DNA from: a virus
DNA: 32,569 nt
Strand: one strand, 5' to 3'
Virus record (IMG/VR): IMGVR_UViG_3300045988_173836
Location: 1 to 32,569 of that record
The translations under genes and the position numbers were made by a program. Below are positions 4,214-25,215 of the stretch, one piece after another; position 1 is the stretch's first letter, and every line of letters begins with the position of its first letter. The notes under the pieces are model-generated. The model searched no databases. It saw nothing but the letters and a program-made list of their open reading frames with translations, and was not told where the DNA came from.

Positions 4214-4435
4214 TCACTTATTTTTAACTGTTTGCGGTATTTGCTTTAACGATGTATGCCTTATACTTTCTCCGCAACAAGGGCAAATAACATATTGACA
4301 TATGCCGCGGCTTCCATCGGGAGGAATTATGACTTCTTTATTTTCGACTTCTTGTTCGTCATACACAAACTCACAGTCACACACGTTGCAAGTTGTTTTG
4401 TATACAAATTTTCCCGTTTTGATTATTTTCTTCAT
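4214..4435 (-). CDS. Putative zinc-ribbon protein (73 aa)
   Basis: Trimmed to MKKIIKTGKF (ATGA overlap with the MTase stop). Two Cys pairs, CNVCDC...CPCCG, are typical of a zinc ribbon. Confidence 0.55.
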   Translation of the reverse strand: MKKIIKTGKFVYKTTCNVCDCEFVYDEQEVENKEVIIPPDGSRGICQYVICPCCGESIRHTSLKQIPQTVKNK

Positions 4436-4857
4436 TTTGTCACCTCTCTTATCTTTTCTTCCCAATCTACATCGAGCATTTGTCCGAACAATGCCATTAA
4501 GCACGTTGTTACAATGCTGTCGCCGGCGAGATGATACAACTTGCTTTTAGACTGATTGGGACTTATTTTGTCAAAATCTTCGTCTTTTACACCCATAAGT
4601 CGGAAACATTCGCGTTCAGTGAGTTTACGTATATGATAATTCGATAAATCCTGATTTTGTGCAAGTTGCATATTTTCTTCCATTGCAGGACATATATAAT
4701 CGCTCGTATCAGCTCGTGAACATCCCTCACGTGTTGTTTTTGAACACGCTATCGTTCGGTTGATTTTAAGATTTTCGACACTTACTTTGTACTTGTCGTT
4801 TGCCGAAACTATGTATCGTTTCATCGTATTCGATAGTTCATATATCTTTGTTTCCAA
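4432..4857 (-). CDS. C5-MTase C-terminal fragment (motifs IX and X)
   Basis: RKLTERECFRLMGV (motif IX) and YHLAGDSIVTTCL (motif X). The track start is a TTG just after the G9 tract. The frame is closed by a TAG immediately upstream of the tract. Confidence 0.8.
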   Translation of the reverse strand: METKIYELSNTMKRYIVSANDKYKVSVENLKINRTIACSKTTREGCSRADTSDYICPAMEENMQLAQNQDLSNYHIRKLTERECFRLMGVKDEDFDKISPNQSKSKLYHLAGDSIVTTCLMALFGQMLDVDWEEKIREVTK

Positions 4858-4861
4858 GTTG

Positions 4862-4870
4862 CCCCCCCCC
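4862..4870. repeat. C9 homopolymer (G9 on coding strand), downstream tract
   Basis: Read directly: g ccccccccc tacgg. Confidence 0.95.
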
Positions 4871-4996
4871 TACGGTATGTTGCGTTGGCGCACACCCCTC
4901 AATGTCGTAAACTCGCCTTGTTTGGTCGTGCAACGTTTCGTACTTGCCGCCCAACATTCCTACGCATATACAGCGTTTTGTTTGTTCTATCACAGC
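4871..4996 (-). CDS. C5-MTase TRD-core segment, open only in the -1 frame relative to the flanking fragments
   Basis: Hand translation: AVIEQTKRCICVGMLGGKYETLHDQTRRVYDIEGCAPTQHTV followed by GGG. The RVY..G..PT pattern is typical of Dcm-family target-recognition domains. Confidence 0.65.
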
Positions 4997-5925
4997 CCCC
5001 CCCCGTCGTTAGGAATAAACGCAAAGCCTTGCCCTTTTTCCTTACATTCTTCCGTGTGTTTAATAAAGTACTGCAATATTTTTTCGGACAAATAATAGTT
5101 TTCAGACACGTTATCTTCAAGCAAATCACGCAACTTACGGGTATTGCCAATTTTTTTCGGAAAATTATAAAAGTGGTCGCCGAGAACGCTTACCATAAAA
5201 CAACGCTGACGATTTTGCGGAACGGCGTAATCTGTTGCGTTTATAACTTCCCATTTAGAGTGATAGCCTAAACTGTCGAGAAACGCTATCCACTCGGCGA
5301 AAGCACCGATGTTCTTCTTGCCAATAACTTGCGAAACGTTTTCCATTAGCAACACTTGTGGCAGTTCTGTGGTTTCTTTAAGCAATCTCTCAACTTCCCA
5401 AAGCAACCCACTACGTGTGCCGCTGCCCTTTTCCATCCCCTTTTGCAGTCCGGCATTGCTCAAATCTTGGCAAGGGAACGAGTATGTCATAATGTAACAG
5501 TACTTGTCCGTATCAACCACGCCAAGGTCTTTGCCTTTCGCATTTACGATTGACACCAAATTGTGCGCCGACTTTATGTTGTTGTAAATTGTCCGCAACT
5601 TTTGCTCACCGTATCGGTTGATTTTGTCCGCAGACAACGGCTCGTTATAATCTGCGCTTATTCCCAATTTCGCAAGTTCCGCAACAACTTCTTGTTTGCC
5701 CATACCGTCCGAGTAGTCCGTCGTATCTTCCGCAAAATGCAAATCGTGCAACGCCTGAATTGACGGTATCGCCCATTCGCAAGTACGGTAATGCTCAAAC
5801 GGAACACCGAGATACTTTAACGCCAACGCCTGGCTGTCATAGCCGCTAAAAAGCGTTATCAGACGTATAGGCTTGTCGATTTTGAACGGCTGTTCGCCGT
5901 CAAATATGCTCATTTGGTAAGTCAT
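4990..5925 (-). CDS. C5-MTase N-terminal fragment (motifs I-VIII)
   Basis: LFSGYDSQ (I), SFPCQDLSNAG (IV), LLMENV (VI), QNRQRCFMV (VIII). Start moved to the ATG at 5925 after GAGGGG. Ends NDGGGL-stop right after the G9 tract. Confidence 0.85.
   Translation of the reverse strand: MTYQMSIFDGEQPFKIDKPIRLITLFSGYDSQALALKYLGVPFEHYRTCEWAIPSIQALHDLHFAEDTTDYSDGMGKQEVVAELAKLGISADYNEPLSADKINRYGEQKLRTIYNNIKSAHNLVSIVNAKGKDLGVVDTDKYCYIMTYSFPCQDLSNAGLQKGMEKGSGTRSGLLWEVERLLKETTELPQVLLMENVSQVIGKKNIGAFAEWIAFLDSLGYHSKWEVINATDYAVPQNRQRCFMVSVLGDHFYNFPKKIGNTRKLRDLLEDNVSENYYLSEKILQYFIKHTEECKEKGQGFAFIPNDGGGL
4996..5004. repeat. C9 homopolymer (G9 on coding strand), upstream tract
   Basis: Read directly: cacag ccccccccc gtcg. 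Confidence 0.95.
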
Positions 5926-22429: not shown

Positions 22430-23938
22430 TTAGCCAAGTACCACGTTGGTCGCGTACTTCGACAGCTCGGATTGCTTCTTGGTGATAGTAATCGTCTTTG
22501 TGTCGGAGCCTTTGGTGACTTTGACGGTAGCTGCTTCGCCGCTCAAAATATTGAACGAATAGAAACCGTTTCCGACTTCTGTTACAGTCGTATCCATTGC
22601 GCCTGCGGTAACTTCGATTGTAGCACCGGTTACAGCCGCGCCCGCTTTCGTCACATACAGACTTACGTCGCAAAGTCCGCTTACGTTCACGCCGCCGTTA
22701 GGTTGCGGAATCTTCGCGATTTCTTTGTAACCGACAACTTCGCCGCTTGCGTTAAGGATAGGCAGCAATACGCCGTCAGTTTTCGCCTGCTTGGACGGAG
22801 CAACGGGATATTTACGTTCGTCAGCCGTAAAGCCAGCAGTTGTAAACACACCTGCGTTCAGGTTTGCGTCGCCGATAAGCTGAGACAGACGGAATGCTTC
22901 GTGACCCCAGCAGTTGAGCGGTTGAGCTTTCATACCGCGCGTTTCCTGTGCGTCAATGATTTTAACGCCAACATCGACAGCTTCGGCAGCGGCGGTTGCT
23001 TCAAAGCTCACGGCGATACCAATTACATGGTCGAGTGCGCCCTTAGCCAAGCCGAGGTATTCTTCCGCGCGGCTCCAAATGAAGTCTACGCATTCGCAGA
23101 AGTCAAACTGCATTGCGTAACCACGGTAAGCGTTGCCCTTGAAGTCGCGGTTTTCCCACTTGTCGTCAAGGTTGTACTTTCTCAGCATGTTCTGTGCGAT
23201 GTCAGAGCCGCTTACGATAATGCCGCTCTTCGTGTTGAACATGTTGTTAATGAACGCGCTACGTGCGACAATGCAACGTCCCTGAGTGCCGTAGGTGTGT
23301 GCACCGGTGATAGCGTCGCCGTTCGACAGTTTAGTGTTCAAACTGTTCAACAGGGTTGCGTATGCACCGTCAGCGGTGATGTCAATCGTGTTGATGTTGT
23401 CTGCGCCGTTTTGGTAACGGTAGATGTTGTATGCCAAAATTTCAGCCAGTGTGCTTGCGCTTTCGTCTTCAACTACACTCTCGGTAAAGCTCGCAATTCT
23501 GCGGCTGATGTCGCGCAGGGGGGCGGCAGTAGCCAATGTCGCCAGTTCGGGGAACAGCAAAGGCTGGTCGTTCAACTGATTGAGTACAACGATAAACTCG
23601 TCGTCAGCGGGCATCAACGCAGGGTTGCGGTTGATAAGTCCCTCGTTGCCGGGTGTGCCAGCGCGTGCGCCGACCTTTACCGTACGGCTTGTTGCGGGGT
23701 ACGGAGTTGCCAGGGGTACGCGAATACTGTCGAGGAATTTCGCGCCTGCGCTGTATCTCTTTGTAACGTTCATGCCGTCGCGGAAAATTTCGCCGACATA
23801 CTTCGCCTCCGCGATAGCCTCGGAGATGTTAGCTTGGAGCATTGTGCCTTCGAGCATAAGTCTTTCCCCGTTGTTATCAGGGGTAGCACCCGTCAACAGC
23901 ACATCTTTTACGATTTGCTCGTAACTTGTGATTGCCAT
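22430..23938 (-). CDS. Major capsid protein with C-terminal beta-sandwich-like extension (502 aa)
   Basis: Follows the scaffold gene. Start moved to MAITSYEQ, 8 nt after GGAGGA. The C-terminal about 90 aa (VSLYVTKAGAAVTGATIEVTAGAMDTTVTEVGNGFYSFNILSGEAATVKVTKGSDTKTITI) looks like an Ig/CarboxypepD_reg-type domain. Confidence 0.75.
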   Translation of the reverse strand: MAITSYEQIVKDVLLTGATPDNNGERLMLEGTMLQANISEAIAEAKYVGEIFRDGMNVTKRYSAGAKFLDSIRVPLATPYPATSRTVKVGARAGTPGNEGLINRNPALMPADDEFIVVLNQLNDQPLLFPELATLATAAPLRDISRRIASFTESVVEDESASTLAEILAYNIYRYQNGADNINTIDITADGAYATLLNSLNTKLSNGDAITGAHTYGTQGRCIVARSAFINNMFNTKSGIIVSGSDIAQNMLRKYNLDDKWENRDFKGNAYRGYAMQFDFCECVDFIWSRAEEYLGLAKGALDHVIGIAVSFEATAAAEAVDVGVKIIDAQETRGMKAQPLNCWGHEAFRLSQLIGDANLNAGVFTTAGFTADERKYPVAPSKQAKTDGVLLPILNASGEVVGYKEIAKIPQPNGGVNVSGLCDVSLYVTKAGAAVTGATIEVTAGAMDTTVTEVGNGFYSFNILSGEAATVKVTKGSDTKTITITKKQSELSKYATNVVLG

Positions 23939-23983
23939 AAATGTTTCCTCCATAAAAAATTTTTGTTTTTTTTAGACTTTCGG

Positions 23984-24466
23984 TTAATTGAATTTAGCCG
24001 CCAGTTTGTCAAGTTTTGTCGCCGTGCTTTCGTCCGCCTCGGCAGGTTTGTGTTGCATTGCTTCAAACTTTGTTTCGAGTTCGACAATGCGGTCTTTCAA
24101 CGCCTTTATAGCGTCGTCATAGTTGTTGTCGTTCGTTTCAGTTGCGGGTTCTTCGCCTGCAACAGCGGGAACTTCTTTTCCGTCGTCGCCTTTGTTTTCG
24201 TCGCCGTCGGCGTTTCCGTCGTCTCCGTCCGCCTTTCCCTCGCCCTTGTCGGCAAGCGCGTTTTCTTCGCCCACGCTCTCGTCAATGCGGTCTTTCGCAC
24301 TCTGTTTGTCCGTTTCGCCCGCGTCGTTTTCTTGTGCGGCTACGCTTTCGTCCAGGTGCGTCTTGATGTGTTCCATAAACTTGCCCTTTTCGTCTTCGGG
24401 CAAGTCTTCAACCGCTTTCAGTATTTCCTCGGCGGTTGTGGGTTTCTTTTTTCCAAAGATTGCCAT
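23984..24466 (-). CDS. Scaffolding protein (160 aa)
   Basis: AGGAGG RBS. Very acidic and low-complexity, with a C-terminal helix (IKALKDRIVELETKFEAMQ). Lies immediately upstream of the MCP. Confidence 0.7.
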   Translation of the reverse strand: MAIFGKKKPTTAEEILKAVEDLPEDEKGKFMEHIKTHLDESVAAQENDAGETDKQSAKDRIDESVGEENALADKGEGKADGDDGNADGDENKGDDGKEVPAVAGEEPATETNDNNYDDAIKALKDRIVELETKFEAMQHKPAEADESTATKLDKLAAKFN

Positions 24467-24480
24467 ATTAGCCTCCTATT

Positions 24481-25215
24481 TTACTTTATTTTTACGCCGA
24501 AAATGTTTTCAAAATCACGAATACTCTCGGCGGAGTAGTTTTCCCGAATATACTCGTTGTCCCAATCTATCAAATCGGAAGCAATGTCGCATATATCGGC
24601 AATGTCGTAATAGTAAGTCACATTATACAATGCGCCCGTGTGGTGCCATTCGGACGGGGACAGATGTTGTTTTATCTTTATCGTCGTAACGCCGAGTATT
24701 TGCGCCGCCTTGCTAAGCGGAAACTTACCCTCGCTTTCGGCACTTTCTGCACGAATACTTTTTGATTTGCCCGCATAGCCGCTTTGACCACGGTTTTGAT
24801 TTGCTGTTCTTATTGCTTCGTCTCTCGCGACCCTTGCGCGCACTGCGGCACTTTCTATTCTTTTTGCCGCTGATAACGTAGCATTCGTCGCTTGACGAAT
24901 TTCTTTCATGCCGTCTGTTTCGCGAAGCGTATTTGTTTGAGATTGTCCTTTGTTGGCGAGACTTTCTTTGCCGTCTTCGATACGTTGCCGCAAGTCCTTT
25001 GGACTTCCTGGGTTGCCCGTAAAATAAACCCTCGGCAAATATTCCAGCCCCTCGTCAGTTCCCAGCAAACGCGTGTAAATGTCGTATTTCCTTTCGGGCA
25101 CCGCTTCGCCGTCTGTCCACCCAACCGATTTGCGCTTTTCCAAAAAACTTTGGTAGCCGCCTTTCGTTGTGAATTTTCCTTCGTCGTCGCGCGGATGTTT
25201 ACTTTCTTCCCACAT
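24481..25215 (-). CDS. Hypothetical virion-module protein (244 aa) with N-terminal KHPRDDEGKF motif
   Basis: Start moved to the ATG at 25215, 7 nt after GAGGAA. The HPRD-x2-GKF motif is common at the termini of phage head-associated proteins (from memory). The C-terminal region is LSKAAQILGVTTIKIKQHLSPSEWHHTG. Confidence 0.6.
   Translation of the reverse strand: MWEESKHPRDDEGKFTTKGGYQSFLEKRKSVGWTDGEAVPERKYDIYTRLLGTDEGLEYLPRVYFTGNPGSPKDLRQRIEDGKESLANKGQSQTNTLRETDGMKEIRQATNATLSAAKRIESAAVRARVARDEAIRTANQNRGQSGYAGKSKSIRAESAESEGKFPLSKAAQILGVTTIKIKQHLSPSEWHHTGALYNVTYYYDIADICDIASDLIDWDNEYIRENYSAESIRDFENIFGVKIK

Follow-up and report, generated by a model that had tools for sequence, protein, structure and literature searches.

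Is a phage methyltransferase gene that lies in three reading frames a broken gene, a misread one, or a gene that changes its frame? This question is raised by the virus record IMGVR_UViG_3300045988_173836 of IMG/VR, of which positions 1 to 32,569 (32,569 nucleotides (nt), hereafter the window) were analysed. The minus strand of the window carries a gene for a C5 cytosine DNA methyltransferase (MTase) which, according to the strand reading and the listing of open reading frames (ORFs), is split into three frames by two runs of nine G (G9). We consider that the locus is best explained as a contingency locus subject to slipped-strand mispairing, which was probably sampled here while one of its recognition modules, M3, was out of phase. 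The feature itself is real, and comparison with the sequences of relatives lends strong support to the contingency reading.

The three pieces of the gene, all on the minus strand, follow each other closely. The N-terminal ORF, alpha' (5925..4990), encodes 311 amino acids (aa) from an ATG at 5925 to a TGA at 4992..4990, and is preceded by the Shine-Dalgarno-like sequence GAGGGG (5935-5930). It holds motifs I (5830-5853), IV (5458-5481), VI (5335-5352), and VIII (5197-5217), followed by the sequence YYLSEK (5080-5097) and then by ...GFAFIPNDGGG, and it ends with L-stop directly past the first G9 run (tract 1, 4996..5004, with the 3' flank CTGTGATAGAACAAAC). Its stop codon overlaps a GTG in the sequence GTGA (4990..4993), and this GTG is the beta start chosen by gene callers in relatives. 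The middle ORF (4993..4838, 51 aa) contains M3, a module that resembles the target-recognition domain (TRD) of HhaI and MpeI (IEQTKRCICVGMLGGKYETLHDQTRRVYDIEGCAPTQHTV, 4871..4990) and that is out of frame with both neighbours here. The second G9 run (tract 2, 4862..4870) encodes the conserved Gly-Gly-Gly at the end of the TRD, and past it the middle ORF terminates, in the G9 state, with the out-of-frame tail QLGNKDI-stop (4838..4861). The C-terminal ORF, beta' (4857..4432), encodes 141 aa from a TTG at 4857, with an in-frame ATG at 4824, and comprises the linker NLETKIYELSNT, a further TRD module named M4' (4633-4824), and motifs IX (4588-4629) and X (4510-4527). The two tracts are separated by exactly 125 nt (their starts are 134 nt apart). 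In the flanking frame tract 1 is directly followed by CTG TGA and a TAG stands directly before tract 2, and the middle frame is open between them, reading (A)VIEQTKRCICVGMLGGKYETLHDQTRRVYDIEGCAPTQHTVGGG, also written AVIEQTKRCICVGMLGGKYETLHDQTRRVYDIEGCAPTQHTVGGG. These ORFs, motifs, coordinates, and spacing had been described in an earlier note made from the sequence of the window, and all of them hold on re-reading. That the N-terminal and C-terminal ORFs share a frame may be a coincidence.

What would the intact gene encode? The earlier note had proposed that G10 or G7 at the upstream tract, together with G8 or G11 at the downstream one, brings back an enzyme of about 500 aa. Each of these combinations (G10/G8, G10/G11, G7/G8, or G7/G11) indeed restores a single ORF of 497-499 aa, and the protein repaired as G10/G8 gave one continuous match to PF00145 over residues 108-483 (E 3e-49). 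Motifs I, IV, VI, VIII, IX, and X follow in the canonical order of C5 cytosine DNA MTases. The best solved homologues of the repaired protein are M.MpeI (4dkj, E 1.7e-33) and M.HhaI, and M3 aligns with the TRD core of M.MpeI. The alpha' ORF is identical to P0241, a protein present on 2 contigs under the JGI/IMG name 'DNA (cytosine-5)-methyltransferase 1'. At tract 1 alone, G10 or G7 would fuse alpha' to M3. The in-frame length of tract 2 is G8 or G11, and G8 at this tract alone would give the window a canonical layout of alpha and beta (186 aa). Two of the original ideas need adjustment: the tracts had been taken to bracket the TRD of the enzyme, but M3 is one of two, M4' being the sole TRD of 412-aa relatives; and the single chain of 500 aa, although reachable in the window, is not the usual form of the family, which consists of two coupled subunits.

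The two tracts stand out from the sequence in which they lie. The plus strand of the window has eleven C runs of length 5, none of length 6 to 8, and two of length 9, and its longest G run is 6; this count bears out the claim that no other G or C run exceeds 6 nt. Dinucleotide-preserving shuffles yielded 0.10 G9/C9 runs per window, and at least two such runs in 3 of 100 shuffles. A pair that shares both a strand and a gene, with the runs 134 nt apart, is much rarer than this shuffle figure. Homopolymers long enough to slip (at least 7 nt) are therefore present within the coding sequence above chance.

A nucleotide search of phage GenBank returned one distant match only (Dulem virus 39, 68% over 17% of the query), and sequence identity to GenBank phage records was below 50%. 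Since IMG/VR gave relatives of at most 55% identity, close relatives were drawn from Logan, ENA, and metagenome contigs. They come from gut metagenomes, pig gut among them, and metagenome-assembled genomes of gut Clostridia, including Christensenellales, contain distant relatives of the gene. The DNA of the relatives derives from short-read assemblies (MEGAHIT k141/k127 contigs, SPAdes nodes, and Logan), and the family statistics refer to 64 non-redundant loci with identities down to about 44%. In the protein search, which brought up about 8,000 homologues, close relatives with 82-97% identity to the repaired protein were of three kinds: single chains of 412 aa (P0001-P0004) without the whole segment between YYLSEK and MK.YIVSAN; many N-terminal fragments of 313-373 aa that end just past ...GF.F.P..GGG; and intein-bearing forms. 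The intein, which is about 370 aa long and includes Hint and homing-endonuclease domains (P0014, P0029, P0093, and P0111), is placed exactly at the catalytic cysteine of motif IV (TYSFP/C...HN/CQDLS), which corresponds to 5458-5481 in the window. Many genes of this family are currently called as fragments.

Across these loci, G runs are concentrated in the variable region of the gene. This region (41.2 kb in total) held 46 G runs of 7-14 nt (1.12 per kb), the conserved MTase parts (57.8 kb) held 4 (0.069 per kb), and the flanks (242.7 kb) held 6 (0.025 per kb), an enrichment of about 45-fold; C runs numbered only 2. Tract lengths peak at 9, and the three phases are evenly spread (16/20/12). 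All 27 loci with runs in the variable region are split, and none of the 33 loci with a single open MTase frame has such runs there. In the relatives that have them, the tracts lie at homologous places and vary in length.

Three such places recur. Tract A, which follows GF.F.P.., is found as G8, G9, and G10. Tract B, which precedes (A)VIEQTK, is found as G9, G10, and G14. Tract C, the orthologue of tract 2 of the window, follows QHTV and is found as G7 (L032, L037, L099), as the in-frame G8 (L102, L104), as G9 (window, L034), and as G10 (L100), and P0130 reads GGGG at this point, consistent with G11. Orthologous tracts differ in length among close relatives that display little other change. The same 60-nt flanks on both sides enclose tracts of G9 in L037 vs G10 in L032, and of G7 in L099 vs G8 in L104. 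Over 1675 nt, 68 substitutions and one indel separate L104 from L099, with tract C at G8 and G7, respectively, while the window differs from L032 by one substitution in M3 and yet has G9 where L032 has G7. Some of these lengths were recovered repeatedly: L104 and L105, obtained by two assemblers from one sequencing run, share the G8 allele, the combination G10/G7 is common to two records from different sources, and G8/G9 is common to two others. In the close clade, some 4 out of 16 tracts are in phase. At tract C, in-phase lengths had at first seemed depleted (0 of 6), but this was gone once loci L102, L104, P0130, and P0297 had been added.

Many of the tracts encode the conserved Gly-Gly-Gly that ends the HhaI-like TRD (...PT..T.GGG..EPKI). 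Among in-frame relatives, 13 spell this tri-glycine in mixed codons and 4 as G8 or G9, so the protein needs no homopolymer. Interrupted versions of tract C (GGTGGAGG, GGAGGGGG) are all in frame, and therefore normal translation of an in-frame length is the functional state. The tracts also coincide with mosaic breakpoints, as many pairs of loci share the flank on one side only.

Alleles of both phases exist. In-frame (ON) alleles were found in L102, L104, L106, P0128, P0130, and P0297, and out-of-frame (OFF) alleles in the window, L032, L034, L037, L099, and L100. The ON lengths predicted from the window are among them: L106 has G10, in frame, at the same kind of hybrid upstream tract and encodes the 433-aa single chain P0268, and G8 at tract C gives intact beta proteins of 206 and 186 aa in L102 and L104. 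Both phases occur inside protein clusters of 90% identity, as beta proteins of 141 vs 186 aa and of 141 vs 206 aa, and as alpha proteins of 340 vs 369 aa.

Is a gene with so many OFF alleles still maintained? Selection was measured from Nei-Gojobori counts, with each piece taken in its own frame. The ratio of non-synonymous to synonymous change (pN/pS or dN/dS) was 0.02-0.09 for the N-terminus and about 0.03-0.1 for the C-terminus, the latter at a synonymous divergence (pS) of 0.5-0.8. For the modules, it was about 0.1 in M1, 0.1-0.4 in M2, 0.14 in Mx, and 0.16 pooled in M3, where L034 vs L099 displayed 11 synonymous and 0 non-synonymous differences. The same DNA gave ratios of 1.2-2.0 in the other two frames (1.19 and 1.98 for M3). 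Every module is under purifying selection in its own frame, and the family is not pseudogenic. Hence, in-frame and out-of-frame alleles both exist in a gene that is kept by selection.

The relatives also reveal how this gene is organized. Among the 27 tract-bearing loci, the window is the only one that tract changes restore to a single ORF. This ruled out that a change of tract length alone restores single ORFs in the relatives, 26 of 27 loci failing to do so, and therefore an alpha/beta split was considered. In relatives from 45% to 98% identity, the end of alpha is conserved as ...ARDYKGFGNQATNGV(I/V)(E/V)WKK-stop, and an overlapping ATG starts beta as MEE(I/V)K... This WKK-stop/ATG junction is also present in loci without any G tract (L049, L073, and L016). 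In L104, alpha (373 aa) overlaps beta (186 aa) by 8 nt, and the alpha/beta junction of the L099 type reads GTGATTGA (frames read by eye). Stand-alone beta proteins of 128-230 aa are abundant, and gene calls in relatives include 141-aa homologues of beta' (P0123, in a cluster of 9). The GTG found in the GTGA of the window is used by gene callers as the beta start in P0122, P0142, P0297, and P0300, all of which begin with MIEQTK... Most close relatives are alpha/beta gene pairs, and fused single chains exist as well (P0268, 433 aa; P0001, 412 aa). Judging from these gene layouts, the family is naturally two-subunit, similar to M.AquI, and its genes are translationally coupled. The window would be single-chain only at G10/G8, and its beta is interrupted by tract 2.

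The variable region consists of modules arranged in series, M1 and M2 in alpha, and Mx, M3, and M4 in beta. M1 reads GIARSVTTLAGNRMDDNF, and M2 reads ..CLMARDYKGFGNQ.TNGVIVWKK. M3 is the sole TRD of P0268, M4' is the sole TRD of P0001-P0004, and the window and P0297 have the two together. The gene thus has at least two tandem and separable TRDs, as do multispecific phage C5-MTases; relatives contribute M1, M2, and Mx as further modules. Where tract A of a relative is homopolymeric, M1 and M2 do not share a frame, and alpha proteins of 340 aa (with M1) and 369 aa (with M2) are both common. Relatives with an interrupted tract A (L099, L104, and L040) have M1 and M2 in one frame; this pattern may reflect just two clades and hence was not counted as independent evidence. 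Mx, the leader of beta that stretches from the end of M2 to tract B, is selected in the MW.IDYNQTGEEW.. frame (L032, L036, L100, L101, L040, and L102). Read in a second frame, the same DNA supplies an ATG (MDK.A.ERKS..), and past tract B there is a GTG, so that all three phases of tract B leave beta a start codon. The 'MDK...' leader was ruled out as a second selected coding frame, with a pN/pS of 1.9 vs 0.14 for the MW.IDYNQTGEEW frame.

Within this architecture, tract 1 of the window takes an unusual place. Its 5' flank has 0 mismatches to the flank of tract A in L037 and L032, and its 3' flank is the tract B flank of relatives, with 4 mismatches to the tract of L106. By these flanks, tract 1 is a hybrid of tracts A and B that arose from a deletion between the two. 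Alignment with relatives indicates that this deletion cost the locus M1, M2, the alpha stop/beta start, and Mx. The same type of deletion is found in L106 against a different background, which is L100-like and has 83% nucleotide identity to the window. The 412-aa relatives P0001-P0004 join YYLSEK directly to MK.YIVSAN, and the window has YYLSEK upstream (5080-5097) and the similar YELSNT (4825-4842) just before MKRYIVSAN, which suggests that modules may also be lost by recombination between these repeated linker motifs.

On this basis, we propose the following mechanism. A catalytic alpha part (motifs I-VIII) is followed by the short recognition modules M1, M2, Mx, M3, and M4, and then by a beta part with motifs IX-X, with coding-strand G runs at the module joints, at conserved Gly-Gly-Gly sites. 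Slipped-strand mispairing in replication would make these G runs hypermutable, and the gain or loss of one G would move the next module into or out of frame in a heritable and reversible manner. The tracts also act as short direct repeats for deletions, and a deletion between A and B left the hybrid G9 of the window. The phase of tract A would select the 340-aa alpha with M1 or the 369-aa alpha with M2. In the G9/G9 state of the window, alpha' ends past tract 1, M3 lies in a frame of its own, and M4' with motifs IX-X forms a third ORF, M3 joining neither of them. A G10 at tract 1 together with G8 at tract 2 would produce a single-chain enzyme with two TRDs, and G8 at tract 2 alone would produce a canonical beta. 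Switching would be expected at high frequency in the phage population, would presumably change the specificity of methylation, and could have adaptive value against host restriction.

Some points weigh against this interpretation. Length heterogeneity within a population, which is the defining property of a contingency locus, is presumed here from comparisons among relatives. The lengths of tract C (7, 7, 7, 8, 8, 9, 9, and 10) all lie within 1 nt of an in-frame length, a pattern that, taken by itself, is compatible with consensus errors too. For the remaining 26 loci with tracts, the alpha/beta split would need to be functional. Some relatives display true decay, the example being the alpha gene of L103 (1296-2240), in which an internal nonsense codon (..NNIKS-stop-KNIVS..) stands for either real decay or a sequencing error within the family; the beta of L103 is intact and in phase. 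Finally, methylation by this locus is a prediction from sequence.

A bolder form of the contingency reading can be considered, and we hold it tentatively, as possible rather than probable. Each tract would independently set the frame of one module (A for M1 or M2, B for Mx-M3, and C for M3-M4 together with the C-terminus), and one genotype would give rise to progeny with differing sets of 5-methylcytosine. The tracts would also serve as joints at which TRD cassettes are deleted or exchanged and at which two-subunit enzymes are converted into single chains. The outcome would be a multi-state bet-hedging against classical and methylation-dependent restriction, widespread in phages of gut Clostridia.

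Among the alternatives, the one that fares best takes the split enzyme to be active as it stands, although we regard it as somewhat unlikely. With both tracts at G9, the 311-aa alpha' and the 141-aa beta' (from the TTG 4 nt past the tract) would both be produced, would associate like the subunits of M.AquI, and would methylate with the specificity of M4'. The G run would act as a mimic of a Shine-Dalgarno sequence, and the tracts would tune the set of TRDs rather than work as an off-switch. Coupled alpha and beta genes are indeed conserved from 45% to 98% identity, including loci without tracts (alpha ...NGVIEWKK-stop, beta MEE..), stand-alone beta proteins abound, and alpha' and beta' together hold every part of the 412-aa single-chain relatives, which have M4' only. 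The ribosome-binding site of alpha' is itself G-rich (GAGGGG). Natural two-chain C5-MTases exist in M.AquI and M.EcoHK31I, and fragment complementation has been reported for M.BspRI, M.BsuRI, M.HhaI, and M.SssI (PMC3404938). Nevertheless, neither the conserved end of alpha nor the coupled ATG is left in the window, and both initiation at the TTG 4 nt past G9 and activity of the resulting enzyme are predictions.

Errors in the consensus come next and are improbable. One or both G9 calls would be wrong, the true state being G10/G8 or G9/G8 with an intact gene. Homopolymers of such length are error-prone on some sequencing platforms, and G9 is 1 nt off an in-frame length at both tracts. The other genes of the window are nevertheless long and without breaks, even though A/T runs of 7-8 nt occur. 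In addition, independent short-read assemblies of relatives are out of frame at the same sites, some of them reproduced across records and assemblers. The two compensating miscalls offered in the earlier note as one explanation are thus unlikely, as independent Illumina assemblies display the same condition, some with identical out-of-frame lengths. Even if the window were miscalled, the tracts of the relatives and their polymorphism would stand, and the nature of the locus would be unchanged. The alternative offered in that note, contingency-like tracts, agrees with their non-random occurrence, with lengths that vary among relatives with identical flanks, and with the presence of both phases in clusters of 90% identity.

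Slippage of RNA polymerase or of the ribosome on the G runs during expression, which would yield some full-length protein whatever the length of the DNA tract and would entail no heritable switching, is in our estimate quite unlikely. From 9 to 14 identical bases in a row are a potential slippage site, and the modules are under selection even where the consensus of a lineage is out of frame. However, the shift that is needed differs in direction (G7 needs one more base, G9 and G10 one fewer), stable RNA structure is lacking downstream of both tracts (z = 0.29 and -1.79), in-frame homopolymer alleles exist, and every stabilised, interrupted tract is in frame, which is unexpected under a programmed frameshift. 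A programmed ribosomal frameshift site was accordingly rejected, given the opposite shift directions, the lack of downstream structure, and the in-frame state of interrupted tracts.

That the window copy is a dead remnant, inactivated for good by the deletion and an out-of-phase tract, is just as doubtful: the deletion did take away two TRD modules along with the natural junction, neither tract is in phase in this allele, and decay is known in the family from the nonsense codon of L103, but the gene has no other lesions, its three pieces are open and near-identical in protein to functional-looking relatives, P0268 with the same type of deletion is fully in frame, and uninterrupted tracts leave one-step reversion by slippage possible.

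How does a slipped-strand contingency locus of this type compare to known systems? Much epigenetic heterogeneity in bacterial pathogens stems from phase-variable MTases. In the phasevarions, a repeat inside the ORF of mod genes of Type III restriction-modification systems (Haemophilus, Neisseria, and Helicobacter) shifts the frame. The Mod protein of phasevarions is a chromosomal N6-adenine enzyme, and one repeat near the 5' end of its gene provides a plain ON/OFF switch. The locus described here is similar in that a simple-sequence repeat within an MTase ORF shifts the frame and ON and OFF alleles coexist; it differs in being a phage C5-cytosine enzyme, with up to four tracts at the borders of TRD modules and a split two-gene organization. 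The MTases of the temperate Bacillus phages SPR, phi3T, rho11s, and H2 are orphan C5 enzymes with an enlarged variable region, whose tandem TRDs can be lost or swapped independently. Tandem TRDs are likewise found here, with natural variants that have M3 only (P0268), M4' only (P0001), or both (P0297 and the window), but the Bacillus phage enzymes are single chains without homopolymer tracts, and multispecificity of the present family is a prediction from its modules.

Homopolymer-bearing MTases have been reported in H. pylori (PMC3936762). In M.AquI, the large subunit carries motifs I-VIII as well as a portion of the variable region, and the small subunit carries the rest with motifs IX-X (PMC3404938). 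The same alpha/beta arrangement is found in L104, L101, L049, and L073. Unlike this family, M.AquI and M.EcoHK31I are cellular restriction-modification methylases with one specificity and no repeats, and the window has lost the natural junction. In phages, hypermutable polyG tracts are known from receptor-binding genes of Campylobacter Fletchervirus phages (Sorensen et al. 2021, Cell Rep 35:109214), and a preprint describes contingency loci in T2 and T4 (PMC12633550). In both cases, G7-11 runs in phage coding sequences, similar to those found here, give rise to frameshifted subpopulations, read as bet-hedging; these runs affect receptor-binding and other genes and not DNA MTases, with no modular TRD logic and no deletions from tract to tract. 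A variable G stretch is also known in a methylase ORF of Bordetella phages (Liu et al. 2004, as cited in PMC4791379 and PMC12633550). The former citation calls the enzyme an adenine methylase and the latter a 'thymine methylase', and in these citing passages it is a case of a single tract in one phage group that was not studied further. Two split annotations in cultured phages, considered as parallels, were uninformative, as Streptococcus phage Javan141 has a plain frameshifted gene without G tracts and Bacillus phage Deep Blue has two complete adjacent MTases. In the literature searched, we found no description of multiple G tracts at the TRD borders of a phage C5-MTase, nor of this split family.

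PolyG switches are already known for the receptor-binding genes of phages. If the tracts described here switch in populations, gut phages would diversify their anti-restriction methylation with each burst. This would matter for host range, for the arms race with Type IV restriction, and for the annotation of 'pseudogenes' in metagenomes. Our data also reveal a large natural family of two-subunit C5-MTases with a conserved junction that appears translationally coupled.

The genomic surroundings of the locus provide some further observations. The window is a compact phage genome whose minus strand carries the genes for a terminase large subunit, a portal, a tail fibre, an Erf-like annealing protein, an exonuclease, and a replication initiator; the MTase belongs to the replication module. 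The other ORFs are long and unbroken. The A/T homopolymers of the window include T8 at 23966 and 28061, A7 at 316 and 21068, and seven T7, and the large ORFs at these places appear unbroken. An antisense ORF of 688 aa on the plus strand (22472-24538) overlaps the minus-strand ORFs 22430-23953 and 23984-24466 and has no Pfam match. The plus strand is rich in pyrimidines (T 10203 and C 8582 vs A 6917 and G 6867); because this richness suppresses stop codons there, the antisense ORF is probably an artefact of composition. Downstream of the MTase, the window has small ORFs, such as a Cys-rich one of 96 aa (4214-4504). In several relatives, a gene of the PAPS-reductase family follows beta, and L099 also has an N6/N4 methyltransferase in that region (L099, 4398-5935; L104, 3058-3906; L103, 3064-3933). 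As both kinds of gene adjoin beta, the neighbourhood in those relatives may be regarded as a DNA-modification cluster.

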